DNA from: Escherichia phage KEP4
Direction: 5' to 3' (one strand)
DNA length: 64,000 nucleotides
Sequence record: PP047754
This document shows positions 1,092 to 15,825 of the stretch, one piece after another. The translations under genes and the position numbers were made by a program. Position 1 is the stretch's first letter. Each line of letters opens with the position of its first letter. Under the pieces are notes generated by a model. That model searched no databases, was not told where the DNA came from, and saw only the letters and a list, made by a program, of their open reading frames with translations.

Positions 1092-2873
1092 ATGGCCACG
1101 CAAACAGTTCCTTCACTCGACGTCAGAGCATTTGAATACATTATTAAACAGCGAATGAAAGCTGATCCCACCTTTAAAGATTATGACTTTGAAGGTTCTG
1201 GTCTTAGTGCGATTATTCGTTTGTTGGCATCTGACGCGAACGCCATAGCCTTTATGCAAAACATGCTTAATGGTGAAGGCCATTTGAAGACAGCAAATCA
1301 ACGTTCAAACGTCGGTTTATCTGCTGCATTTCTTTCCTACACGCCTGACAACTATCGGGCAGCATACATGTATGTCAACATCAAAGTTACGCCTTATGAC
1401 GCCAGCACAGCCCCCAATGAGATCATCATGGATCGGCGCGTAATGTTCGTTGGGGCAAAAGACGGCAGTTCCTACAACTTTACTGTTGAGAAACCAGTGT
1501 CGGCAACGTTGACTGCAGACGGTTATTACATGTTCAACAATGTAAAGTTGATACAGGGGAATTGGTTGTACAAGACATATGATGTTGAAGGAAGCGCGAT
1601 TTCAACATATACGATTCCTTCTGGGAATGTCGATATCAATCATATGGTCGTGCAAGTACAAGAATCAGAGTCTTCCGACGTTTCGACGACATATCAACGT
1701 TACAACAGTCCATTTGATCTGAGCCAATATGCCTACCTGTATTTCGTAGAATTGGGTATTGATGGTCTGTATGTGTTTGAATTCGGAGATGGTTATCTTT
1801 CGCGTCGAGTAGAAGATGGGAACGTCATATTCCTTCAATACTTAGAAACTTCTGGTGCTGATGGGAATGATATCACAAGCCTGTCATCAGCGTCATCCAT
1901 AGGCGGGTTTAACCAGGTCGATGTAGAATTGGTTTCCGAACGTAGCGCAGGTGGAGACGATCCGGAATCTATTGAGGACACTAAACGGTTGGCTCCTTTA
2001 GCTTATCAGGCTGATGGTGCTGCGGTTACAGAAACAGATTATGGTGTATTGACTGAAAGGTTATTCTCCAACGTCTCCCGAGCTAAATCATATGGTGGTG
2101 ACACGCTGTCTCCTCCTGATTCTGGCTATGTTTACATCGCTGTTATACCTTCTGTTGGTGAGACACTTTCGGACGCTGAGAAGGCCGATATCGTTGCTGC
2201 TCTGGACAAGTATAATGTGGGATCTATTACCCCCAAAGTGGTAGACTCCGAGATCACATATATCCAAGTCTCAACGACTATATTTTGGGATCCGACTTCT
2301 ACAGTCTACGTTGAAGAACAGATGAAAGTTGTTGTTGGAAACAGTATCGTTAAATGGGGTGAAAATAATCTCGGCGGATTTGACCAATTGTTTGACAAAG
2401 AAATATTGCAGGAAGCAATTACAAAAATGGAGCGTTCTATTAACTCGAATATTACTTCGGTTGGTTATAAACGCCATTTCAAACCCGATTATGGAGTCTT
2501 AGACAGTTTTACATTCAGTTATGGAAGAAGTATCAAACCTGGTTCTGTGAAAATAACGGGGTTCAAACCGCTTCCTGCCGAGGTGGATTTCACTTACTAC
2601 ATGCGCGACAATAATGGCGATTTGAACATGTATAAAGTGAATAACAATGACACGACAAAAGAGTTTTTAGTTCAAAAAACAGGGGTTGTAGATTATGCAA
2701 ATGGGGTTGTAGACCTTCAACAGATCACAGTCTCCAACTATAACCCTGAAGGGGTGACCATAGTCGTGTTACCGGATGGACTGAACCAGAACATACAGGC
2801 TACACAAAACCAAGTATTCAAGATTGGTGATGTGGTTGTTACGCCAGAGGTGCGCTATGTCCAAAGATCTTAA
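1092..2873 (+). CDS. baseplate wedge protein (T4 gp6-like), tentative
   Basis: 593-aa ORF; track start 1041 is TTG, ATG at 1092 has GGAG 6 nt upstream; position at head of the baseplate/tailspike block; product by synteny and size only. Confidence 0.5.
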   Translation: MATQTVPSLDVRAFEYIIKQRMKADPTFKDYDFEGSGLSAIIRLLASDANAIAFMQNMLNGEGHLKTANQRSNVGLSAAFLSYTPDNYRAAYMYVNIKVTPYDASTAPNEIIMDRRVMFVGAKDGSSYNFTVEKPVSATLTADGYYMFNNVKLIQGNWLYKTYDVEGSAISTYTIPSGNVDINHMVVQVQESESSDVSTTYQRYNSPFDLSQYAYLYFVELGIDGLYVFEFGDGYLSRRVEDGNVIFLQYLETSGADGNDITSLSSASSIGGFNQVDVELVSERSAGGDDPESIEDTKRLAPLAYQADGAAVTETDYGVLTERLFSNVSRAKSYGGDTLSPPDSGYVYIAVIPSVGETLSDAEKADIVAALDKYNVGSITPKVVDSEITYIQVSTTIFWDPTSTVYVEEQMKVVVGNSIVKWGENNLGGFDQLFDKEILQEAITKMERSINSNITSVGYKRHFKPDYGVLDSFTFSYGRSIKPGSVKITGFKPLPAEVDFTYYMRDNNGDLNMYKVNNNDTTKEFLVQKTGVVDYANGVVDLQQITVSNYNPEGVTIVVLPDGLNQNIQATQNQVFKIGDVVVTPEVRYVQRS

Positions 2874-3711
2874 TAATGGACACAACGGGGTTAAGTATGA
2901 AACTCCGTTGTTCTACCAGAATGATTTCCCTCTGTTCATAGAATTTATGGACACGTTTTTCAATTGGCTGTATAGACAGCAGGGGTTCACTCAAGAAGAG
3001 ATCTTGGCATATCTGGCAGATACGTCTAGTTGGATGAATCCCGAGAGTGAAGATTCTCCGGTTAAACAGCTGATTGATTTAAAGGCTGACAAGACTCCAG
3101 GCTCAGAGGCCAAGGATTATTTGTCTGATAAATTCTTGGTTCGTACCTTTGAGAACATGATGGCTCTGGATGCCGAAGAACTTTTAGATGCCGACGGAAG
3201 GCCGCTATTGTCAATAGAAGATAAGAACAAACAGATAGATGACTGGTATAATGATTTTGGTTTCCAACGAACTGTTGATAAATCATTTCAGGAATTTGGT
3301 CATTTTATCCCAGTTGGTTCGGATTCTTTGCTGACGGCAACGGGAGACAGGTTCTCAGTTTACATTGAAGGAACGAAACGGAGAACGCTAGATCATCCAC
3401 GTTGGTTGAAACTGTTAAAACATATCTATAAAATCCGCGGAACCAAGAAAGCAATTGAATTGTTCTTTTGGATATATTTTGGTTGTCCAGTCAGTGTCTA
3501 TTTCCCAAAAGAGGAAATAGGCGGTCTGGATGGCAATTTTGAATGTGACGGTATGACAGGGATGCGTGATGACTATTATTATGATGAGTACACTTACGTG
3601 ATAAGAGTCCCAGGCGACGTATCTGATTTCGAAGGCGTATTTGAACGTGTCTTCCGTCAGCATTTCCATCCTGCTGGGTTTACTGTATTCCTAGAAAGTT
3701 CAAGGAGCTAA
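2857..3711 (+). CDS. putative baseplate/tail structural protein (284 aa)
   Basis: ATG at 2857 with GAGG 7 nt upstream, overlaps upstream gene by 17 nt; no motif recognised. Confidence 0.5.
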   Translation: MSKDLNNGHNGVKYETPLFYQNDFPLFIEFMDTFFNWLYRQQGFTQEEILAYLADTSSWMNPESEDSPVKQLIDLKADKTPGSEAKDYLSDKFLVRTFENMMALDAEELLDADGRPLLSIEDKNKQIDDWYNDFGFQRTVDKSFQEFGHFIPVGSDSLLTATGDRFSVYIEGTKRRTLDHPRWLKLLKHIYKIRGTKKAIELFFWIYFGCPVSVYFPKEEIGGLDGNFECDGMTGMRDDYYYDEYTYVIRVPGDVSDFEGVFERVFRQHFHPAGFTVFLESSRS

Positions 3712-3713
3712 AA

Positions 3714-4904
3714 ATGGCCGATTTCCTGAGTCAATATACAGGTCAGCAGATAGATCAGATATTGGGTTCTGTTGACGACAAAGTAAGTAAAAATGACGTT
3801 ATTAACGATTTTGAAGTTAACGACCCATTGTTTCCACCATCTGCTCGCCTGACATATGAGTTGAAAAGATCTGTTGACACAATCAATGATACTCTGGCCA
3901 ACAAAGTTATTCGTACAGATAGTGGTGAACAAACAATCAATGGCAAAAAGACTTTCAATGCGTTGTTGGTGACCAATGGGGGCATACAAGTCCCCGCCGG
4001 AAAATCCGTTTCAATCACAGATGAACCAACGAACTCGACAGATGGTGTTAACCTGAGCATGTTGAGAAAGCATGGCGTCAGTGAAGACACTACCCCGCCT
4101 GGTTCTGGTTTGGCTGGGGAGTTGTTGACATCCGGATATTACAAATTCAATTTGGATTTCACCAGATTGTCTGCGTATACCGGACCAACGTTGCCGACTT
4201 CAGTTCCTGTACAGACAGATTCTGGAGCGCGTTATTGGACAATGACTGCATTTTTTGATGCGTTGTTTGCAGACAACCGATTTAATGGATATGTGACAAC
4301 GACAGCGTATGACGCAGATATGCTGAGTCTAGAGTCTCAAATTAATAACATCAACACGTCGTTGAACGGGAAAGTCAACACCTCGACTTACAACACTAAG
4401 ATGGCGTCGTTGGATTTGAGTATCTCCAATATCAACACGTCTCTGGGTAATAAAGTCGAGGTCAGCACATATAATACGAAGATGACTTCCTTGGACGGCA
4501 GTATCAGTTCTCTCACGACTGGTAAGGTCGATGTATCAACGTATAATGCCAAAATGACCACAATTGATAACAGTTTAGGGAACGCAGTTTATCGCACAAA
4601 AACAAACTTGTCGTCATACACGGTTTCGGCTTCGGGAACGACGGCTCTTCCAGATTTTGATTTGGTGAACCTTTGTCAAATACTGGTAACTGCGCAATGG
4701 GGGACAGGTAACGTTGTTGACACATATCGAGTAACCATAACTCGTGACGGAACGATCAAATCAGAGTTGTTGGTTCAGAAAAGTACGAGTGGTACAGTGA
4801 CGTTCACAGGGTCTGTGGTGGGCGGTAAATTGAGAATTTCCGTTGTTAATGCGAATACAACAACTGCTTGTTCTGTCGATTATTCTATTGCAGCTTCTTT
4901 CTAA
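3714..4904 (+). CDS. tail fibre-like protein with tandem 27-aa repeats
   Basis: 396 aa; N-terminal KVIRTDSGEQTINGKKTFN fibre-type motif; central repeats NINTSLNGKV-TSTYNTKM-SLD. Confidence 0.6.
   Translation: MADFLSQYTGQQIDQILGSVDDKVSKNDVINDFEVNDPLFPPSARLTYELKRSVDTINDTLANKVIRTDSGEQTINGKKTFNALLVTNGGIQVPAGKSVSITDEPTNSTDGVNLSMLRKHGVSEDTTPPGSGLAGELLTSGYYKFNLDFTRLSAYTGPTLPTSVPVQTDSGARYWTMTAFFDALFADNRFNGYVTTTAYDADMLSLESQINNINTSLNGKVNTSTYNTKMASLDLSISNINTSLGNKVEVSTYNTKMTSLDGSISSLTTGKVDVSTYNAKMTTIDNSLGNAVYRTKTNLSSYTVSASGTTALPDFDLVNLCQILVTAQWGTGNVVDTYRVTITRDGTIKSELLVQKSTSGTVTFTGSVVGGKLRISVVNANTTTACSVDYSIAASF
4347..4580 (+). repeat. two full and one partial 81-bp in-frame tandem repeats inside the fibre gene
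   Basis: units start at 4347 and 4428 (aacatcaacacgtc / aatatcaacacgtc); third unit degenerate. Confidence 0.6.
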
Positions 4905-4950: not shown

Positions 4951-7900
4951 ATGGCCAACAAACCAACACAGCCTCTTTTCCCTTTGGGTTTAGAAACTTC
5001 TGAGTCTTCGAACATAAAAGGCTTCAACAACTCCGGCACTATTGAGCATTCCCCTGGTGCCGTAATGACATTTCCTGAAGATACTGAAGTTACAGGTCTT
5101 CCATCTTCTGTGCGTTACAATCCTGATAGTGATGAATTTGAAGGTTATTACGAAAACGGTGGTTGGTTGTCTTTGGGTGGCGGCGGAATACGCTGGGAAA
5201 CGCTCCCTTACGCTCCCTCTAGCAATTTGTTAGAAGGTCGCGGCTATCTCATTAATAATACGACAGGGACTTCTACAGTGGTTCTCCCTTCCCCTACGCG
5301 CGTTGGTGATTCAGTTACAATTTGTGATGCCTATGGGAAATTCGCGACGTATCCATTGACTGTATCTCCAGCGGGAAATAACCTGTACGGCTCCACCGAA
5401 GATATGACGATATCCACCGATAACGTGTCGGCGACTTTCACTTGGTCTGGTGCCGAGCAGGGTTGGGTTGTTACATCTGGTGTTGGCCTCGGCCAAGGTC
5501 GTGTGTACAGTCGTGAGATTTTCACTCAAATTTTAGCATCTGAAACAAGTGCTGTCACTCTCAATACTCCACCAACAATCGTGGACGTGTATGCTGACGG
5601 AAAACGTCTTGCGGAATCCAAATATTCACTAGATGGGAATGTAATCACTTTCGACCCTTCTTTACCTGCCAGCACTGAATTGCAGGTAATAGAATATACT
5701 CCGATTCAGTTGGGCACTGGCGGCGGGGGTTCGGGCGCTTCTGCAATCACCTGGATTTACAATGGCGGATCCGCTATTGGTGGCGAAACCGAAATAACGC
5801 TAGATATCGTTGTAGATGATGTTCCGGCTATTGATATAAACGGGTCTCGTCAGTACAAAAATCTTGGATTCACGTTCGACCCATTGACGAGTAAAATCAC
5901 TCTGACGCAAGAACTGGAACCAGAAGATGAAGTTGTTGTGGTTATAAATGGGACACCAAACATTTATAACCAAATCGATCGTTCTTTACAGGAAGTTGCT
6001 CGCGCCTACAATTTTACAAATGCTCAAGTTATTTTGAGCAACGATTATACTTCTGTTCTGGATAATAAAGTCGTTATTTATGATACGACATCCCAACGTT
6101 CTTGGGGGATTCCATCTGGAATCCCAGCAGGTTCTACAGTGGTTTCCGTCAATGGGGATCAACTGAAGTACAAAAATGGATCAACTGAAACCACTGTTAC
6201 ATTGGTGAGTGTACCAGGTAGTGCAGAGAAATTGAAGAACGATCTGGCTTCAAACTCTGGTTCAGGTATGTTGAAAACTTCTAGAGGTGATACCGTAGAA
6301 GAAGAATTGACTTTCATTAATCAGAATATGGTCGTTCAAATTTCAGATTTCGCGAGTCTTAGAACTTTAGTGCCAGCCACAGCGGGTATCCGAGTCAAAT
6401 TGAAAGGTTATTATTCTGGTTCTGAAATCGGTGGCGGAGAATTCATTTCTGTCGCTGGAGATGCTGTTGATGATGCTGGGATGATTGCTCGAGTGTCAAG
6501 CAGCTTCTATTGGAAGAGAATTATCGACAAACACATTACTCCTGGCATGTATGGCATCAAAGGGAATCTTCCAGAAGATCCGGCAGTGAAACTGAACGCT
6601 ATGTTTACGGCTGCGGCTGCGGCTAACGCTTATGTCTTACTGAACGATGTCGACACTCTGGTCTGTAAAAGCCCTGTCGTGATTCCAGCACATTCATTAG
6701 TGTACGGCAACAAACGAACTATACTGAAACGTGATGCATCGTTGTCATATGCTAATGATTTCTTGACAATTATGAATGATTCATATGTCAAGGGGATCTA
6801 TGTTGATGGTAGCCGTTTAGATTCTCAGACTCCTCTAGAAGCAGTTTTGGTGCGTATCGCTGGGAATGTAACTATCCATAAGAGTGAGATCCGAAACAAT
6901 GCTGGCTATGGCGTTGTTGGTAACGCAGTCCCTGGTATTCGTATCACCAAGAACATTTTTTCCAACTTCGCCAAAGGTTGTGTAGCCATGTTTGGCGACG
7001 GAACAGCGACGAGTGATGATCTGCAAATTAATGATAACAGATTCTTTAACCTGGGCGCGGGAACCATTTATGTTGGCGGTTACTCAAACTTCCTTGTCGA
7101 CAAAAACGTCGGAAGAGGCACTTACGTGGGTTCTCCAGGAAACCGTCTGTATGTTGTGACCAATACTAACGGGACTATCACCCAAAGCGCTGGGCCAGAT
7201 TTTGGGCCATTGAAAACGGGTATGTTCTTTGTATTGCCTGGTGGTTCTGAACATATGATAACGGCGGTCAACAGCCTTACCAGTGTGACAGTAACCCCAC
7301 CACCGCCGTCGAACGCCACAGTTCGTGCAATCGCAGGGACAGGGGATCTTCTGGGCATCCAATCATGCTCCTACGGCACCATCAGCCGTAACAACCTGAC
7401 CGATTGCGTGACTTACGGAACTGGTGGAGGCACGATGGAGGGGAGCACTCTGGGTTGCAATTATGTCACTTGGGAAGACAACTTCATCCGCAACACAGGT
7501 AAGAACGGAATCAACGTCGGGCAATCAGGCGCTGGGGTTGCCACGTGTTCTATCCTGAGGAACACTCTGATACAGGTTGGTAACGGCGGTCAGGGTGTTG
7601 GCCCAGCGTATCTTCTGCCTTGGTTCGATACGCTAGGTATCGCTCTGTATCAGGGAAACCCAGGTTATATGGCGAATATGGACGTCAGTGATAACAACGT
7701 CTCTACATGGTCTGGCGATCTGAATGACGGCGCTGCTTGGTTTGGTATGAGCGGTTGTACGGAAGCCACTGTGACTTGTACAGGCAACAAATCTTCTGGT
7801 TATTCCGACGGCTATGTTCGTGGAGATATATTAGAAGTCACGTTGACAGGTTATGGTACAGGGGCGGCTGCGACTTCATTCGTTAGTGATGGTGAGTCTA

Positions 7901-8124
7901 TACAGATAACCGTTCAAACAGGTACTTCACCAACAGCTTCACCTTATTTTTCAGTGCGGAAGGCGATCCGCACCCGCCATCAACCGATGATAACGGCGCA
8001 GATCGTCACCACAACTGGGAACATGTCTCATTGTTGGGGTATGCAATCTAGTACAGCAGGAAACTGGATGGTGGGTCAGAATACAACTCCTTCGGGGCTT
8101 ACGACATATTACGCAAAAGGGTAA
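4951..8124 (+). CDS. tailspike protein, long form (1057 aa) with N-terminal attachment domains and a C-terminal beta-helix-like region
   Basis: shares an internal module with ORF 10771 (SLQEVARAYNF...VVIYDTTSQRSWGIPSGIP vs SIQEIARSANV...VVYDVAAQTSYGLPTIP); Gly/Asn-rich periodic C-terminus. Confidence 0.7.
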   Translation: MANKPTQPLFPLGLETSESSNIKGFNNSGTIEHSPGAVMTFPEDTEVTGLPSSVRYNPDSDEFEGYYENGGWLSLGGGGIRWETLPYAPSSNLLEGRGYLINNTTGTSTVVLPSPTRVGDSVTICDAYGKFATYPLTVSPAGNNLYGSTEDMTISTDNVSATFTWSGAEQGWVVTSGVGLGQGRVYSREIFTQILASETSAVTLNTPPTIVDVYADGKRLAESKYSLDGNVITFDPSLPASTELQVIEYTPIQLGTGGGGSGASAITWIYNGGSAIGGETEITLDIVVDDVPAIDINGSRQYKNLGFTFDPLTSKITLTQELEPEDEVVVVINGTPNIYNQIDRSLQEVARAYNFTNAQVILSNDYTSVLDNKVVIYDTTSQRSWGIPSGIPAGSTVVSVNGDQLKYKNGSTETTVTLVSVPGSAEKLKNDLASNSGSGMLKTSRGDTVEEELTFINQNMVVQISDFASLRTLVPATAGIRVKLKGYYSGSEIGGGEFISVAGDAVDDAGMIARVSSSFYWKRIIDKHITPGMYGIKGNLPEDPAVKLNAMFTAAAAANAYVLLNDVDTLVCKSPVVIPAHSLVYGNKRTILKRDASLSYANDFLTIMNDSYVKGIYVDGSRLDSQTPLEAVLVRIAGNVTIHKSEIRNNAGYGVVGNAVPGIRITKNIFSNFAKGCVAMFGDGTATSDDLQINDNRFFNLGAGTIYVGGYSNFLVDKNVGRGTYVGSPGNRLYVVTNTNGTITQSAGPDFGPLKTGMFFVLPGGSEHMITAVNSLTSVTVTPPPPSNATVRAIAGTGDLLGIQSCSYGTISRNNLTDCVTYGTGGGTMEGSTLGCNYVTWEDNFIRNTGKNGINVGQSGAGVATCSILRNTLIQVGNGGQGVGPAYLLPWFDTLGIALYQGNPGYMANMDVSDNNVSTWSGDLNDGAAWFGMSGCTEATVTCTGNKSSGYSDGYVRGDILEVTLTGYGTGAAATSFVSDGESIQITVQTGTSPTASPYFSVRKAIRTRHQPMITAQIVTTTGNMSHCWGMQSSTAGNWMVGQNTTPSGLTTYYAKG

Positions 8125-8137
8125 TATTGAATGCCTA

Positions 8138-8171
8138 AATACCCCATATTGGTCATCCTTTATGGGGTATT
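8138..8171 (+). promoter_or_regulatory. hairpin fused to late-promoter box (CTAAATA 8135-8141); 11-bp stem aataccccata/tatggggtatt
   Basis: perfect inverted repeat 8138-8148 / 8161-8171; GGGG 7 nt before ATG 8175; near-identical copy at 10726-10765. Confidence 0.65.
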
Positions 8172-8174
8172 ATC

Positions 8175-10715
8175 ATGATTTCTCAATTCAATCAACCACG
8201 CGGTTCCACTTCCATAGAAGTTAACAAACAATCTATCGCTCGAAATTTCGGTGTCAAAGAAGACGAAGTCGTTTATTTCACTGTCGGTATTGACCTCAGT
8301 GGATTTAAAGTAATTTATGATGAGTCTACCCAACGGGCTTATTCTCTCCCTTCCGGTATTGTTTCAGGGACAACTGCAATTAGTCTGGATGAAAGAGCTA
8401 TCCTCACTCATTCTTCTGGCTCTGTTGACCTTGGGGAATTAGCAGTAAGCCGCGAAGAATATGTGACTTTACCTGGTTCTTTTAATTTCGGCCATACCAT
8501 TAATGTGAAAAATGAACTTCTTGTTCACGATGATGAAAAATATCGATGGGATGGTTCTTTGCCAAAGGTAGTTGCCGCTGGTTCTACACCCGATAACTCA
8601 GGCGGTGTTGGCACAGGCGCGTGGATACCTGTTGGCATTAATTCTTTGTCTGGCGATGGTGGTTGGTCGCGTATCGGATCAGAATTTGGTAAATCTTTGA
8701 AAGAACATATTCAAAGTCTTCCCAGCTTGTCTGCTGTCAAATATATGACATTTGTTGAATACGCAGCCCTTTTGGCAGGAAACGACACGGTCAATCATGA
8801 CGTTAAAGTTCAGCAAGTTATGGATGAAGCGCATGAATTGAAATGCTCTGTTTATTTTCCAACAGGGCGTTATGTATTTGACACTGCAGTCAACGTTTGG
8901 ACATACGTTCGCGCTGTTTGGGGAGACGGTTCGGCCATTATCACCAGACGTTACGGAAGTCAGTTTAGTTCCCCTGGGGTGATAGATCCGGCGCATGATA
9001 CGCGTAAATTATTCCGAATGATGGGCGGAGCGTTGGGACCGCAGTCTATTCATGGTCTTATTATTGATGGTAATGCGCGTTCATTTACAGTCCCAAAACA
9101 TACTGATTCGGATCAAACTTATCCCAACCAAACTTATTATGGCGATGTTGAACCAGTCGATGTTGGCCCATATGTATTTGGACCGGAAGGAAATACTTCT
9201 GTTCCTGGCGCTTCTTACTATAACCATGATAAGAAAGAATCCGGTCTGACCGTTTTCGATATGGTGTTTAAAGATCAACCTGGTGGTGGTGTCGTAGGTA
9301 ATGGCCAAAACGTCCGTGTGTTTGGAAATCACTTTATGGGTTGGTATGACCATGCTGTGTATATCGCCGGAAGTAACTTTGCCTCGGAAGGAGACGGAAT
9401 TTTGTGTAGTGATATTGTTGTCACTGGTAACGTATTCCGAAATCGTATTAACAATCGAGGCAATGGAGCAGTCAAAGCACGATTTGGTGTTAATCGTTAC
9501 GCAGTTACAGGCAACTCCTTTGATATAGTTGACTATTGCATGGCATTTGAGATGGGTAATGGACCAGCGACTCAACCATTTGGCCAAATTGTTGTGGACG
9601 GCAACGTGTGCACTTCAGATGGTATGTTTATGCAAATCGGGAATGATATTGGGACTGAGTGGTTCTCGACCAATTGGCTCAAATCAATGACTATTACGAA
9701 TAACACAGCACGGTCGTTGGATCGCATTTTCTTGTTAGGGGTTAGCGGATCTTCCAGTTATATTATGGATGGGTTTTCTGTACAAGTGGCCAATAACCGA
9801 TTTTATGCGCCGTCATTTTTGTCCGTGTACACATTCATGACGAATACGGAATGGATGTTGAATAACAATATCGTGGAGATCACAGGAACTGCTATGATCA
9901 CAGGAGTTGATCAATCGAACATCAACAATTCACGGATATATCTTAAAGATAATGTTTTAGGAGTTCTCCGGACTGATGTTCAAGGTTATGCTGCAGTCAG
10001 TAATTTTCAACAAGTTGAAATTTCTAATAATACATTGCGTAATTTGTATTTCCAAATAGGAAGTTATACCACAGATCTGTTTATTAAAGGAAATACTGTT
10101 AACTACACATCTGCATTATCCAGTAAAAACTTGGCGCTCATGTATTCAAGTGCTGGGAATGGTTTGATAACAGCCGATATCAGTGATAATAAGTTTTTCG
10201 GTGGAGTTGGTCGTTGCCAACTTAAATTCAGTAGCAGCGCTTCTCTGGATTGTATTAACAACAAATTCTTTACAACTTCGGCACCGTTTTTGGAATTGCA
10301 TCCGGCTGGTTATACTCCACGTGTCGTTCGTATAAAGGACAATTTAATGCGTGGTGCAGGCGTATTGCTGGCTCCTCTTGCTTCTGGTGTTTCTTTGTCC
10401 GGTGCTGGGAATTATATGGTAATTTCGGGAAACACGTTGATGGCTAATAACCCATCTGCGCCTGAAAATATAACTTTGTATCAGGACACAGGTGCGCAGA
10501 GTTGGGTGGCCCATTATGAAACTATCAGATGTGTTCGAAATGATTTCAAATCTGCGCTGTTGGCGATTAATGCAACAGGGACAGCACAATCTGGTTTGAG
10601 TACTACCAATAAATTCTGGTTCGGGGATAACGCGACGATTAATACCACGGTTGTTTGTACTTATCCTGCTGGCAACAAAGCCAACACCGACATCACCCAG
10701 ACAGTTTCAGTTTAA
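8175..10715 (+). CDS. tailspike protein (846 aa), parallel beta-helix type
   Basis: N-terminal ~150 aa paralogous to ORF 13591; middle region has pectate-lyase-like repeats (GNGQNVRVFGNHF, VTGNVFRN, VTGNSFD). Confidence 0.7.
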   Translation: MISQFNQPRGSTSIEVNKQSIARNFGVKEDEVVYFTVGIDLSGFKVIYDESTQRAYSLPSGIVSGTTAISLDERAILTHSSGSVDLGELAVSREEYVTLPGSFNFGHTINVKNELLVHDDEKYRWDGSLPKVVAAGSTPDNSGGVGTGAWIPVGINSLSGDGGWSRIGSEFGKSLKEHIQSLPSLSAVKYMTFVEYAALLAGNDTVNHDVKVQQVMDEAHELKCSVYFPTGRYVFDTAVNVWTYVRAVWGDGSAIITRRYGSQFSSPGVIDPAHDTRKLFRMMGGALGPQSIHGLIIDGNARSFTVPKHTDSDQTYPNQTYYGDVEPVDVGPYVFGPEGNTSVPGASYYNHDKKESGLTVFDMVFKDQPGGGVVGNGQNVRVFGNHFMGWYDHAVYIAGSNFASEGDGILCSDIVVTGNVFRNRINNRGNGAVKARFGVNRYAVTGNSFDIVDYCMAFEMGNGPATQPFGQIVVDGNVCTSDGMFMQIGNDIGTEWFSTNWLKSMTITNNTARSLDRIFLLGVSGSSSYIMDGFSVQVANNRFYAPSFLSVYTFMTNTEWMLNNNIVEITGTAMITGVDQSNINNSRIYLKDNVLGVLRTDVQGYAAVSNFQQVEISNNTLRNLYFQIGSYTTDLFIKGNTVNYTSALSSKNLALMYSSAGNGLITADISDNKFFGGVGRCQLKFSSSASLDCINNKFFTTSAPFLELHPAGYTPRVVRIKDNLMRGAGVLLAPLASGVSLSGAGNYMVISGNTLMANNPSAPENITLYQDTGAQSWVAHYETIRCVRNDFKSALLAINATGTAQSGLSTTNKFWFGDNATINTTVVCTYPAGNKANTDITQTVSV

Positions 10716-10730
10716 ATTGAATTGAGCCTA

Positions 10731-10765
10731 AATACCCCATATTGGCAAATCCTTTATGGGGTATT
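10731..10765 (+). promoter_or_regulatory. hairpin fused to late-promoter box (CTAAATA 10728-10734); copy of the 8138 element
   Basis: inverted repeat 10731-10741 / 10755-10765; the in-frame ATG at 10756 lies inside the right arm. Confidence 0.65.
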
Positions 10766-10770
10766 TTCAA

Positions 10771-13536
10771 ATGACCAGAAATGTAGAAGAATTATTCGGC
10801 GGCGTAATCACAGCTCCCCACCAGATTCCTTTCACTTATAAATCAAGTGTCGGTGGAGAAACTTTCTTTTCTCTACCTTTCTATCCTGTCACTGGCGTAG
10901 TCACAATTAACGGCGGCATGCAAGTTCCGTTAGACAACTTCGAGATAGACGGGAATACGTTGAATCTCGGGCGCGCATTGTCCAAAGGCGATGTTGTGTA
11001 TTGCTTATTCGATAAAATTCTTTCACCAGAAGACACTGCCAAAGGCATCCGCATATACAAATTTCAAGCCGTGGGTGGAGAAACTGAATTCACGCCTGAC
11101 TTTACTTCTTATGGTGTACAGTCTCTTTATATCGGTGGCGAATACAAAACTCCTGATATAGAATATTCCTATAACAGCACGACAGGGAAAGTGTCTTTGC
11201 AAACTGCATTGACTGCAGGCGTTTGGGTAGTCGCTGAAATGTCTGTTAAACAACCGAATATCAGTCCGGCGTTTGATCGCAGTATTCAAGAAATTGCCCG
11301 TTCTGCTAATGTGAAAGACTCTGAAGTCATCGTTAGTACGGACACCATATCTTTATTGGATGGGAAGAAAGTTGTTTATGACGTAGCGGCGCAAACCAGT
11401 TATGGCTTACCAACCATTCCTGATGGTTCTGTCATTTCTTCTGTTAGTAATGGGCAACTTACTTATAATCCAGGTAATGTTGTAGTGGATTTGTTACCTT
11501 TAGAAGATTCATTTATTAATGTGATAAACACTCTGGGGCGCAATGATGGTGCCAAGTATATCGGAGAATGCCATTCTGTTGCTGATCTCAGGAATACTGA
11601 ACCCACTATGGATGGACAACGCATTATTCTTAAGCAACACACTGCGGGTACTCTTCTTGGTGGAGGGGTATTCCGTGCGTTAATTGATGGTACAGGAAAG
11701 ACTGATGATAACGGCACTGTGATCAAAACTGTTGGCGGCGCAGCCTGGTTACGTGTTAATGCTGATAGAGTTAACCCATTCATGTTTGGTGCTTTGGGCG
11801 GTTCTAATGATGATACTATTCCAGTACAATCTTGTGTGGACAGTGGTAAGGCCACACAATTAACTGGTGTACATTACGTTAGCAATATCCGGTTAAAATA
11901 TAATACGTCGTCTATTTATGGGTCTGGATTACATTACTCCAGGTTGCATCAGTTGCCTTCTGCTACTGGGAATTGTATTACCATAAAAGATACATGCTCC
12001 CTTATTGTATTAGACTCCTTTGGGGTATATGGCACAGGTGCACAACAAGGCACATCATTTACTGCGGGTACAACAGGTATCTATATAGAAACTCCTTCAG
12101 GTCTCTCAGCCGATTATCCGTTCCACACTACCGCAGACCCAAGACGCGACTTGTGTATTTCTAAGGTCCATATAGCAGGTTTTGATGAATATGGGTTAAA
12201 TATTGATAGTGGTAACTTTAGTGTTACTACAGATTCTCTTTTAGTCAACCACATCAATCAGGTGGGCGTCCGTTGTGCTACTACTGATTGGACTTGGACA
12301 AATATTCAGGTTAATACCTGCGGTAAACAATGTCTGGTTCTTGATGGTTGTGGTAATGGTCGTATTATTGGTGGTAAATTCATTTGGGCTAACTGGCAAC
12401 CTTATGGTACAGTAGGACAGTTCCCAGGCATTACTATTAATAATAGCCAGAATATGGTTATTAATGGTATTGAGGTACAAGATTGTGGCGGGAATGGCAT
12501 TGAGATTAGCGATTCATATTCAATTTCCATGAACGGATTGAACACCAATCGTAACGGCATCAACGCTAACAACACTTTCTACAACATCGTATTTAACAAA
12601 AGTGATGCAGTTATCAACGGATTCGTAGGACTCAATTATGCTGCGAATAGTGGTTCAGGTGCTAACTCTAGTGCAGGCAATTTTCAGTTCCTGTCTAATG
12701 ATTGCAGCGTCACCATTAATGGTGTGGTTGAGACTGGTTATATGGGCATTAACTTTATTGGTGATAACAATATTATCAACCCCACAAATTCCGAACTGAG
12801 CATTAACGGATTGGTTAATTATTCCAAGACTGGTTTGCAAACCATGAACGAGACCCCTACATTTGATGGTGTTAGCACTACACCTGTTTATGTAAGTGTC
12901 CCATCTTCTGTAGGGCAAGTAAATGGTCTGAGACTATCACAAGCCAACAAAGATAAATTACTGTACTCAAGAACAGCAGGTCCAGAAGGTATTACCATGG
13001 CTGCTGTTGTAGTACCTACCATATCTGGAGCTGAAGTATTTAACTTCATGGCCATTGGTTCAGGGTTTAGTGATACATCCAACAGTCTTCATCTTCAATT
13101 AGTTATAGACGCTTCTGGAAAACAAACAATTGCTTTGCTATTGGGGGGCGATGGTACAACCCAAATTTTATCTGGGGATTTACCTAACGACCTTAAACTA
13201 CAAAGTGGTGTGCCATATCATATAGCTATTGGTGCTAAACCTGGATATTTCTGGTGGAGTATTCTTAATATTCAGACGGGTAAGAGAATCAGACGGTCAT
13301 TCCGAGGCGCTTATTTAGCTGTACCATTTAATTCTATATTCGGATTAACTTCTTCATTAACATTCTTCTCGGATAGCAATGCTGGTGGGGATGCCTGTTC
13401 TGGTGTAGGTGCTAAAGTGTATGTTGGTATGTTCTCTTCTGAGAATGATTATGTAGCTTCACGGTACTACAACCTGATTAATCCTGTAGACCCTAATAAG
13501 TTAATTAGTTACCGTATATTGGATTCTTCTATTTAA
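10771..13536 (+). CDS. tailspike protein (921 aa) with N-terminal attachment domains and beta-helix
   Basis: start set to ATG 10771 (hairpin-spacer-ATG as at 4951 and 8175) rather than track ATG 10756; repeats GNGRIIGG, NGIEVQDCGGNGIEISD. Confidence 0.7.
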   Translation: MTRNVEELFGGVITAPHQIPFTYKSSVGGETFFSLPFYPVTGVVTINGGMQVPLDNFEIDGNTLNLGRALSKGDVVYCLFDKILSPEDTAKGIRIYKFQAVGGETEFTPDFTSYGVQSLYIGGEYKTPDIEYSYNSTTGKVSLQTALTAGVWVVAEMSVKQPNISPAFDRSIQEIARSANVKDSEVIVSTDTISLLDGKKVVYDVAAQTSYGLPTIPDGSVISSVSNGQLTYNPGNVVVDLLPLEDSFINVINTLGRNDGAKYIGECHSVADLRNTEPTMDGQRIILKQHTAGTLLGGGVFRALIDGTGKTDDNGTVIKTVGGAAWLRVNADRVNPFMFGALGGSNDDTIPVQSCVDSGKATQLTGVHYVSNIRLKYNTSSIYGSGLHYSRLHQLPSATGNCITIKDTCSLIVLDSFGVYGTGAQQGTSFTAGTTGIYIETPSGLSADYPFHTTADPRRDLCISKVHIAGFDEYGLNIDSGNFSVTTDSLLVNHINQVGVRCATTDWTWTNIQVNTCGKQCLVLDGCGNGRIIGGKFIWANWQPYGTVGQFPGITINNSQNMVINGIEVQDCGGNGIEISDSYSISMNGLNTNRNGINANNTFYNIVFNKSDAVINGFVGLNYAANSGSGANSSAGNFQFLSNDCSVTINGVVETGYMGINFIGDNNIINPTNSELSINGLVNYSKTGLQTMNETPTFDGVSTTPVYVSVPSSVGQVNGLRLSQANKDKLLYSRTAGPEGITMAAVVVPTISGAEVFNFMAIGSGFSDTSNSLHLQLVIDASGKQTIALLLGGDGTTQILSGDLPNDLKLQSGVPYHIAIGAKPGYFWWSILNIQTGKRIRRSFRGAYLAVPFNSIFGLTSSLTFFSDSNAGGDACSGVGAKVYVGMFSSENDYVASRYYNLINPVDPNKLISYRILDSSI

Positions 13537-13540
13537 AAAT

Positions 13541-13562
13541 ATACCCCTCTTCGGAGGGTATT
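13541..13562 (+). terminator. terminator-like hairpin (tacccctc-ttcg-gagggta) followed by TTT
   Basis: GC stem with ttcg tetraloop directly after stop 13536; shares the ATACCCC motif with the promoter hairpins. Confidence 0.5.
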
Positions 13563-13590: not shown

Positions 13591-15825
13591 ATGAATCCGC
13601 AATTTGCTCAACCAAAAGGTTCTACTTCAAAAGAATCGAATAAAGATAGCATCGCCCGTAAATTTGGGTGCAAAAAGTCGGAAGTCGTTTATGCGAAATC
13701 AGGACAGTCCTTGTCTGGTTATAAGGTTATTTATGACAAGGAAACACAGAGAGCGTATTCCTTGCCTGTAGATATTCCAGCAGGAACCACGGTTATTAGC
13801 CTTAGCGCCAGTGCTCTGCTTGTACACTCTGGGGGTTCTGTAGACCTGGGCGAACTAGCTTCCCAACGCAATGAATATAATGTATTACCTGGTTCTTTTA
13901 CTACTGGTGCAATAGTATCCACAAAGAATGATGTACTTACCCACAATGGTATCCAGTATCGTTGGAATGGTTCATTACCTAAAGTTGTACCTCAGAACTC
14001 TTTACCATCCAGTGATGATAATTGGATTGGCTTGGGTGCTTCTTATCTGAAGGAACAGCTTAACAGTACCAGTGGTGCATCCATGGTAGTACTGGCTAAT
14101 GGCAAAACCATTGAAGAAGAATTTGCCGAAGAAGCTGCATGGCAGAACCAAGAGAATATGGTGAGAACCGTTATTCCTAATGTTTATCACCATATCCGTG
14201 GCGTTCAGCGTCACTCTGGTAAAAACTTAGCATGGTCTGCTCCAGACGTTGCTATTGATAAACTTAACCCTACGGATACCGTCTTCTACCGTATGCCCCA
14301 GATTGTTAAAACTGGTGATGGTACTCTGATGATTTTCTGTAATGAGTTGCATGGTAACAATACAGATATTGGTGCTACTCCAGATCAGCAATGTAATATC
14401 GTTATGAAATACTCCATTGATAATGGGTGGTCTTGGTCGGCTAAGGTAGTGGTAGCTAACTTTGGGGCTACGTATCAGAACGGTGAGATTGCTGCTGTGT
14501 ATAACCCAGCAGATGGTCGGGTATACTGTTACTTTACTTCCTGCAAAGGCCAGTTGGGTTGGGGATACTCACAGCCAGGCAATGACCCTAATACATCATC
14601 CCAGATATATGTTACCTACTGTGATGCGGAAGCTCCTACTATATGGCGTACACCAGCTAACCTTACTGCTACCCTTAAGCCAGCAACGGCAGATTTTATC
14701 TGGACTTCACCAACTAAACCAGTTGTTTTACCGGATGGTAAGATGGCAATGATTGTGTCTACCGTCACTGGTTCACGGGTTGATTCTTTCCTTACCATCA
14801 TGAAGTATGACATTAAGTACAGCATGGACTACGTACTTAGTTCCGAAGAATCTGGTGGGGAAGTCGGACTGAACCTTTTGCCGGATGGTCGTATGGTGAT
14901 GAACTCTCGTGCTTACCACACCACAGACCTTAAAGGGCTTCAGAAATTCTATATCAGTGATCATCAGTTTAAGAACTGGCAGCACTTATCTGATTTAGTT
15001 ACATCGGATAGTAAGGGTGACCTGGTTCCTATTTTTGATGGGGTTAATGGTGTTCTTACTTGGGCGTTTACTTGTGCTAATGGTGTAGGTGATAATTCTA
15101 TTGGTCGTACTAACTACCGAGTATGGATTAGTCGTGACCTAGTTACTTGGGGGTTAGCTCCTACTGGGGATATCAACACAAGTGATTCTGTTGGGTACAT
15201 CGCATCAATGCCTGGTGGTGATGATGGTTATGTAATCTCTACATCTGAATCAGGTGGTTTTGGTGGTATTTGGTTTACTCAATGGAATGCTAAGTATATC
15301 CAGAACAGAAACTACAACCGCTATCACAAAGAGTTGCGAGAATTAGAGTCAGTAGATGAAACAGCAATGCTCGCATCCGGTGCTATTCCTAACTACTCTT
15401 TTTACGTAAACAAAGACTCCAACCTAATTAACTTCAACCGCAACGGTACTCCAGTTAAGATTCAGCAGTTGGGGGTTAGTCAGAATGCTGTTGATAAGTA
15501 CACTACAACTCAGACCCTAGCATCTATTCCTGTAGATGGTGTTGATATTGTATTAGTCACTGGTTCTGGTACTACTCTTACCCTTAGTGGGTTTAGCGGT
15601 GGATATATGGGCCAGCGTGTGACAGTTATCTCTGATTCATCTGGTGGTGGGGTGGTGCTTAAACGTGCTGATACAACATTGCCTACTGTAACGGACAGAT
15701 TCCACTTTAATGTGGCAGGAGCCTTTACTGCTTTGAGGGTAGACTATGCAACTAAGATGATGGCTACTTTAGTTAAGACTCCATCTGGTTGGTTCACGGA
15801 AAGTATTGCTAACGTAACAATCTAA
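13591..15825 (+). CDS. tailspike protein (744 aa) with sialidase/BNR-like beta-propeller catalytic domain
   Basis: AGGAG SD 9 nt upstream; N-terminal anchor domain paralogous to ORF 8175; FYRMPQIV (RIP-like) motif and Asp-box SIDNGWSW. Confidence 0.65.
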   Translation: MNPQFAQPKGSTSKESNKDSIARKFGCKKSEVVYAKSGQSLSGYKVIYDKETQRAYSLPVDIPAGTTVISLSASALLVHSGGSVDLGELASQRNEYNVLPGSFTTGAIVSTKNDVLTHNGIQYRWNGSLPKVVPQNSLPSSDDNWIGLGASYLKEQLNSTSGASMVVLANGKTIEEEFAEEAAWQNQENMVRTVIPNVYHHIRGVQRHSGKNLAWSAPDVAIDKLNPTDTVFYRMPQIVKTGDGTLMIFCNELHGNNTDIGATPDQQCNIVMKYSIDNGWSWSAKVVVANFGATYQNGEIAAVYNPADGRVYCYFTSCKGQLGWGYSQPGNDPNTSSQIYVTYCDAEAPTIWRTPANLTATLKPATADFIWTSPTKPVVLPDGKMAMIVSTVTGSRVDSFLTIMKYDIKYSMDYVLSSEESGGEVGLNLLPDGRMVMNSRAYHTTDLKGLQKFYISDHQFKNWQHLSDLVTSDSKGDLVPIFDGVNGVLTWAFTCANGVGDNSIGRTNYRVWISRDLVTWGLAPTGDINTSDSVGYIASMPGGDDGYVISTSESGGFGGIWFTQWNAKYIQNRNYNRYHKELRELESVDETAMLASGAIPNYSFYVNKDSNLINFNRNGTPVKIQQLGVSQNAVDKYTTTQTLASIPVDGVDIVLVTGSGTTLTLSGFSGGYMGQRVTVISDSSGGGVVLKRADTTLPTVTDRFHFNVAGAFTALRVDYATKMMATLVKTPSGWFTESIANVTI

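Follow-up and report, generated by a model that had tools for sequence, protein, structure and literature searches.

A TSP1 tailspike of Kuttervirus phage KEP4 with a probable GH33-type sialidase propeller in place of the beta-helix

In the papers on Ackermannviridae that we consulted, the tailspike proteins (TSPs) are described as having receptor-binding domains that are beta-helices. In phage CBA120, the N-terminal anchors serve for docking within a branched TSP complex, in which TSP1 docks onto the XD3 domain of TSP4 (PMC11721090), and the beta-helix domain of CBA120 TSP1 (ORF210, PDB 4oj5) is specific for Salmonella O21. An exception to the beta-helix description is the widely distributed subtype TSP1-20, which was named by Harris et al. 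with gp189 of phage ECML-4 as its type (PMC10892097). In this study, we analysed 64,000 nucleotides of Escherichia phage KEP4 (sequence record PP047754; this whole stretch is called the window), which is a segment of a Kuttervirus genome (Ackermannviridae; CBA120/Vi01-like), and examined the spike gene at 13591..15825. We consider it likely that its product is the TSP1 of the branched complex and that its receptor-binding module is a retaining sialidase propeller of the GH33 type instead of a beta-helix. The gene and the parts that carry this reading are as follows (aa, amino acids).

13591..15825, plus strand: TSP1 gene, sialidase-like spike; open reading frame (ORF) with ATG start, 744 aa plus stop, from the ORF list
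13591..14040, plus strand: tandem anchor domains, aa 1-150, seen from Pfam Tail_spike_N, PDB matches and identity to TSP3
14203..15288, plus strand: GH33-type six-bladed beta-propeller, aa ~205-566, with R234, D259, E424, R440, R506, Y536 and E553
14284..14307, plus strand: FYRMPQIV, RIP-type motif, aa 232-239, holding R234, the first Arg of the predicted triad
14413..14436, plus strand: Asp-box SIDNGWSW, aa 275-282

The earlier note on this DNA, which was made from the letters alone, had pointed to the two motifs and had proposed a propeller instead of a beta-helix. Both motifs were present. FYRMPQIV aligned without gaps to the segment around R194 of the Porphyromonas gingivalis sialidase PG0352, and SIDNGWSW aligned to the S-x-D-x-G-x-T-W box of solved sialidases. 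SIDNGWSW is the sole canonical Asp-box in TSP1, and two degenerate boxes (ISDHQFKNW near aa 455-463 and SRDLVTW at aa 514-520) lie where the relatives P0011 and P0012 have canonical ones. When the single sequence was searched against PDB, GH33 sialidases matched aa ~229-463 with an E-value of 1e-9 (P. gingivalis enzyme), and the family profile matched the GH33 structure 4fj6 at E 1e-20. AlphaFold2 gave no usable model when run on the whole protein from the single sequence (predicted local distance difference test, pLDDT, 32.6). With a 12-sequence alignment, the model of the monomer reached a mean pLDDT of 75.6 and contained six times four beta-strands over aa ~205-566. Foldseek against PDB returned only GH33 sialidases or KDNases among the top 50 matches (best E 2.6e-17, probability 1.0), and the six-bladed propeller of the model was superposable on solved GH33 exo-sialidases. 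The trimeric beta-helix that characterises the receptor-binding domain of Ackermannviridae TSP1 was not found in the model, which has the propeller instead; on this point the proposal of the earlier note was supported. These results support the assignment of the receptor-binding part as a GH33-type six-bladed propeller, neither a beta-helix nor a propeller of the endosialidase type. A chance match of the motifs was rejected, since the profile and fold statistics exclude it.

The bacterial GH33 exo-sialidases used for comparison were PG0352 (8feb/8t26), Hz136 and Sialidase26 from gut metagenomes, Parabacteroides distasonis BDI_2946 (4fj6), and Tannerella forsythia NanH. Identity between TSP1 and these enzymes was only 15-20%. 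They also differ in architecture: TSP1 has no N-terminal carbohydrate-binding module but a phage anchor and a neck, and it has an additional C-terminal beta domain.

The roles of the active-site residues have been described for PG0352: R194, R398, and R460 form the arginine triad, D219 is the acid/base, E382 is the base, and Y488 is the nucleophile, while E504 braces R194, R213 contacts O4 of the sialic acid, D256 its N-acetyl group, and D381 its glycerol chain (PMC10553830). In HMMER alignments, R234, D259, E424, and R440 of TSP1 aligned on R194, D219, E382, and R398, respectively, D259 without gaps. A profile restricted to the last two blades lacked the strength to retrieve sialidases, so the remaining residues were mapped by aligning four full-length classical sialidases, taken from an exhaustive hidden Markov model (HMM) search, to the family profile, in which the whole propeller was aligned. 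In this alignment, the third Arg of the classical sialidases was matched by R506, their AYS Tyr by Y536, and their LYE Glu by E553. The predicted arginine triad is accordingly R234 (in YRMP), R440, and R506. D259 lies at the expected distance of about 25 residues past the RIP Arg and is kept in all close relatives whose sequence extends over this position; the assignment of Y536 as the nucleophile, E424 as its partner, and E553 as the residue bracing the first Arg comes from alignment only. The spacing of the seven residues is 25/165/16/66/30/17 in TSP1 versus 25/163/16/62/28/16 in PG0352. All seven positions were conserved, wherever covered, in TSP1 and its 14 closest relatives (P0002-P0015; 34-79% identity). 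The GH33 active site thus appears complete, as judged from alignment and conservation.

In a set of distant spike-like relatives (P0017-P0020, P0024, and P0027-P0029), the Asp, the Glu, and two Arg are kept, Tyr (Phe in P0028) stands at the position of the RIP-motif Arg, and the nucleophile Tyr is often lost. These proteins could form a branch whose activity is different or whose role is binding only. It is conceivable on such grounds that the propeller of TSP1 is itself a non-catalytic, lectin-like module which holds the receptor without cleaving it: the fold is common to propeller lectins and to the non-enzymatic attachment proteins of paramyxoviruses, and the Tyr that replaces the first Arg in this set indicates that the scaffold can drift from the canonical active site. 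We regard this explanation as improbable, however, since, if there were no selection for catalysis, it would be difficult to account for conservation of the seven catalytic residues, wherever covered, down to 34% identity. Moreover, the characterised Ackermannviridae spikes are, to our knowledge, enzymes.

Several points weigh against the sialidase reading of TSP1. The protein missed every Pfam threshold for BNR or sialidase families (its only Pfam match was Tail_spike_N), and it scored 38 bits with the NCBIfam neuraminidase model, whose cut-off is 900; Pfam BNR_2 matched four of seven relatives at a lenient E-value. The last two blades emerged solely from the full-length profile and the model, and a profile of these blades alone retrieved no PDB sialidases. 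The placement of the active site comes from alignment, and the model represents a monomer. The isolation hosts of the carrier phages (E. coli O157 and S. Typhimurium) are explained by other spikes of the cluster, and none of them is documented to display sialic acid. A receptor for TSP1-20 is assigned neither in the Sorensen subtype paper nor in the tables of the 2024 Ackermannviridae review. Finally, Leu253 (aa 253-254 are encoded by 14347-14352) replaces, within an ungapped stretch, the Arg that contacts O4 (R213 in PG0352). This position is Leu or Met throughout the close family, with a conserved His254 next to it, whereas it is Arg in classical sialidases; given the missing Arg, the preferred sugar may not be N-acetylneuraminic acid (Neu5Ac) at all. 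In addition, Gly423 replaces the Asp that contacts the glycerol chain (D381 in PG0352).

These substitutions bear on the nature of the sugar. It is possible, although we do not favour it, that the target, whether in an O-antigen or in a group-2-type capsule, is another 2-keto-3-deoxy acid (legionaminic acid, pseudaminic acid, KDN, or Kdo), which would be cleaved by the same GH33-type mechanism. Of the sugar, the arginine triad recognises the carboxylate alone, a group that all of these acids have in common, and the change of the O4-contact Arg to Leu or Met in the close family fits this explanation, as does the presence of KDNases among the top structural matches. In CAZy, GH33 includes activities of KDNases and of Kdo hydrolases. 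Furthermore, most of the prophage copies described below are in the Enterobacter cloacae complex, and the pathway legend of a paper on E. cloacae O-antigen clusters includes the enzymes for synthesis of Neu5Ac (nnaABC) and of pseudaminic acid (pse) (PMC7198725). The one feature that speaks against such a sugar is E299 (Asp in some relatives), which keeps an acidic residue at the position of the N-acetyl contact D256 of PG0352.

The N-terminus of TSP1 is an Ackermannviridae TSP anchor, as judged from its sequence matches. Pfam Tail_spike_N (PF18668) matched aa 91-141 and also matched TSP3 of the window, the spike encoded from position 8175, and the two proteins were 54% identical over 181 aa (E 6e-49), in agreement with the paralogy of the N-terminal ~150 aa that the earlier note had claimed. 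The anchor region aa 1-150 matched the crystal structures of CBA120 TSP1, TSP3, and TSP4 (4oj5, 5w6f, and 5w6h) with E-values of 1e-39 to 1e-48; the matches to 4oj5, 5w6f, and 6nw9 were at E 1e-47 to 1e-48, and that to Gp48 (9d84) was at E 3e-53 and extended to aa 194. TSP1 shares with CBA120 TSP1 and other Kuttervirus TSP1 proteins the same gene position and a homologous anchor (E 1e-47, aa 1-163); unlike CBA120 TSP1, it continues into a propeller that is followed by a C-terminal beta domain. By analogy with CBA120, it presumably docks to TSP4. Between the anchor and the propeller lies the following segment.

14041..14202, plus strand: neck or linker, aa 151-204, low-confidence and partly helical in the model, with pLDDT <50 at aa 181-203

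The propeller is followed by two further segments.

15289..15390, plus strand: helical connector, aa 567-600, with helices at model residues 387-398 and 407-416
15391..15822, plus strand: C-terminal beta-rich domain, aa ~601-744 (~145 residues), with about 14 strands in the model, conserved in relatives

The C-terminal domain accompanies the propeller in all members of the family, and its end is a conserved ANVTI-like tail. Neither its single sequence nor its profile matched a PDB sequence, and Pfam gave no match; the domain may add binding or oligomerisation.

Spikes built around sialidase-like propellers are known from other phages. The GH58 endosialidases of phages phi92 (4hiz) and K1F (endoNF) are likewise spikes around a sialidase-like six-bladed propeller, which in their case degrades a sialic acid polymer. 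Membership of TSP1 in GH58 was rejected, as neither the kinship to endoNF or phi92 in sequence or closest fold nor the stalk and the C-terminal chaperone domain were found. A GH33-like propeller in a spike also occurs in the sialidase-like tail proteins of the Aglimvirinae phage RPN242 (TSP4, gp163), Gamaleyavirus nithesis (CDS0004), Sashavirus BDX09P1, and PC3/PH4. They differ from TSP1 in that they are only 25-30% identical to it and have other adaptors and other spike positions. A protein of the RPN242 type is probably the best structural match in BFVD (E 1e-29), in view of its matching length of 1053 aa. The positions of three of these distant domains, each in its own locus, are given below; it follows from their occurrence that GH33-like propellers entered several enterobacterial phage lineages.

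4369-7530 of locus L004: RPN242 TSP4
1444-4530 of locus L007: nithesis, 1028-aa tail protein
2501-4021 of locus L008: Sashavirus

Close relatives of the part beyond the anchor were few. A search of 5.8 billion proteins with aa 181-744 gave only 12 clusters, and no members were added to these 12 when the family profile was used in a second, word-indexed protein search. The exhaustive HMM search gave 1830 representatives at E <1e-3, a set that corresponds to the GH33 superfamily, and only 24 at E <1e-30. Most of these 24 are spike-like, are 580-930 aa long, and carry N-terminal adaptors that are unrelated; a few are fragments. The members that bear a name are prophage proteins: two clusters, with most of the copies, are from the Enterobacter hormaechei/cloacae complex, and the others are from Salmonella enterica (diarizonae among them) and from a few E. 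coli. IMG/VR contained one prophage-like locus, a scan of species-representative genomes gave no relative, and blastn of complete E. coli genomes found nothing, whether the query was the gene of the window or either of the two Enterobacter prophage types. The module returns in prophage spikes whose N-terminal adaptors are unrelated, so that the propeller together with the C-terminal domain acts as a mobile receptor-binding cassette. In podovirus-like prophages, the same module is the only tail spike, with tail genes on one side and the lysis cassette on the other.

A gene of the Pfam family Acyl_transf_3 directly adjoins the spike gene in each of the four prophage loci that were read, which are those of S. 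diarizonae and E. hormaechei, one on a Logan contig, and one on an IMG/VR contig. The four genes encode membrane acyltransferases of 342-350 aa.

11433-12461 of locus L002: Acyl_transf_3 membrane acyltransferase
12475-13503 of locus L003: Acyl_transf_3 membrane acyltransferase
10445-11476 of locus L006, minus strand: Acyl_transf_3 membrane acyltransferase
6662-7714 of locus L005, minus strand: Acyl_transf_3 membrane acyltransferase

They are of two unrelated types (23% identity) in opposite orientations, and NCBIfam had no name for them. The Acyl_transf_3 family includes phage-encoded O-antigen acetylases. The pairing suggests lysogenic conversion through O-acetylation of the receptor; accessory genes are common at this position. 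The S. diarizonae copy of the spike (P0010) is truncated to 377 aa and is without the first third of the propeller. A gene for an IS-type transposase lies immediately upstream of it, and this region (8419-11134 of locus L002) looks like a prophage remnant.

The genomic setting also bears on whether the enzyme serves bacterial recognition at all. The closest matches in both sequence and structure are exo-sialidases of gut and oral Bacteroidota, and a sialylated bacterial host is not documented for these phages; TSP1 might accordingly be an exo-sialidase for animal glycans (mucus or cell-surface sialic acid) that aids persistence or movement in the gut instead of recognising a bacterial receptor. 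We give this explanation very little credence. The propeller occupies the receptor-binding position of a spike in the adsorption apparatus (PMC11721090), the module is the sole spike of podovirus-like prophages, the prophage spikes are paired with a membrane acyltransferase, and the O4-contact Arg typical of exo-sialidases is absent.

We read TSP1 as a putative virion-borne enzyme that would bind and cleave its receptor, a sialic acid or a related ulosonic acid of an O-antigen or capsule. The target that the earlier note had suggested, a sugar of sialic, nonulosonic, or other acidic type, is plausible because the predicted catalytic set is complete and conserved, and it also fits the reuse of the module in prophage spikes of Enterobacter, Salmonella, and E. 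coli. In the mechanism that we propose, TSP1 would be docked on TSP4 through its tandem N-terminal domains and would meet a host O-antigen or capsule containing sialic acid or a related 2-keto-3-deoxy acid, whose carboxylate would be bound by R234, R440, and R506. Y536, activated by E424, would attack C2, with D259 as the acid/base. The cut of the ketosidic bond would trim or depolymerise the polysaccharide, so that the phage could reach the outer membrane, and the spike would add one serotype to the host range.

Enterobacterial O-antigens with Neu5Ac in the main chain have been described for Salmonella O48, E. coli O24, O56, O104, and O171, Citrobacter braakii O37, and Hafnia alvei; in Salmonella O48, E. 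coli O104, and H. alvei the substituted position of the Neu5Ac is C4, and in E. coli O24, E. coli O56, and C. braakii O37 it is C7 (PMC9631793). To depolymerise chains of this kind, a spike has to tolerate a sialic acid that is both internal and substituted. Since enterobacterial sialic acid lies within the chain and Leu253 replaces the O4-contact Arg, the enzyme may act on internal, substituted residues and not only on terminal ones. In terms of the alignment, the missing Arg would fit an internal O4-substituted sialic acid, and it would fit another ulosonic acid equally well. One way of joining these observations, which we put forward only as a rather doubtful proposal, is an endo-acting branch of GH33 that cuts O4-substituted sialic or nonulosonic acid in the backbone (e.g., of Salmonella O48, E. 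coli O104, or H. alvei); Leu253 would open the pocket, and the adjacent acyltransferase would O-acetylate the same sugar and block superinfection. If this were true, Kutterviruses would gain access to sialylated serotypes that mimic the host, and the spike would be a specific reagent for them.

This spike is already in public records and partly annotated; its interest lies in the unassigned receptor, in the apparently intact GH33 active site within a family of spikes that is usually given as beta-helical, and in two leads, namely Leu253 and the pairing with an acyltransferase. The TSP1 gene was 99.3% identical in 15 deposited phages, among them ECML-4, FEC14, 3HA11, FSL SP-029/063, Guerrero, Sajous1, FrontPhageNews, and AR2819, and the near-identical genes are annotated as tail fiber, tailspike, hypothetical, or (putative) exo-alpha-sialidase. 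With other Kuttervirus TSP1 genes, DNA identity is limited to the first 151 nt. The product of the 99.3% identical gene of Sajous1, gp139, was among the most abundant virion proteins in mass spectrometry (113 spectra), and Harris et al. guessed its role as "cell wall degradation" (PMC10892097). On the receptor or biochemistry of TSP1-20, our literature search found one sentence and the table entries in the same paper and nothing else.

The receptor of TSP1-20 is one unassigned entry in schemes for host-range prediction. A complete sialidase-type active site would point to a small set of hosts, i.e., enterobacteria with sialic or nonulosonic acids in their O-antigens or capsules, many of which mimic host glycans. 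If the target is confirmed, host-range prediction and the engineering of chimeric spikes for Kuttervirus biocontrol phages could be improved, and an enzyme that cuts bacterial sialo-polysaccharides could be obtained; if nothing is cleaved, the spike is an already annotated curiosity.

In the ORFs of the window, TSP1 is the last of the four genes of the cluster TSP4-TSP3-TSP2-TSP1 and is followed by a VriC-like gene of 1612 aa.

4951-8124, plus strand: TSP4, 1057 aa
8175-10715, plus strand: TSP3, 846 aa
10756-13536, plus strand: TSP2, 926 aa
13577..13581, plus strand: AGGAG, Shine-Dalgarno-like, 9 nt upstream of the TSP1 ATG, found by sequence inspection

The annotation of phage Guerrero has the identical order of spike genes, with the cluster downstream of the baseplate wedge genes; the position of TSP1, fourth in the cluster between the baseplate wedge genes and vriC, is that of a Kuttervirus tsp1. 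Among the neighbouring spikes, Pfam Beta_helix matched TSP4 alone. The spike cluster at 4951-13536 is a mosaic in which TSP4 and TSP3 show ~96% identity to those of Vi01, and TSP2 (and TSP1) match ECML-4 at ~97-99%. None of 50,697 phage genome records covered at least 80% of this 8.6-kb spike stretch, and the combination of four spikes appears to be undeposited. Between the TSP2 stop codon and the ribosome-binding site of TSP1, a short hairpin was observed at 13544-13558, which is rich in GC, has a UUCG loop, has ATTT after it, and may act as a weak terminator or an RNA-stabilising element within the spike operon.

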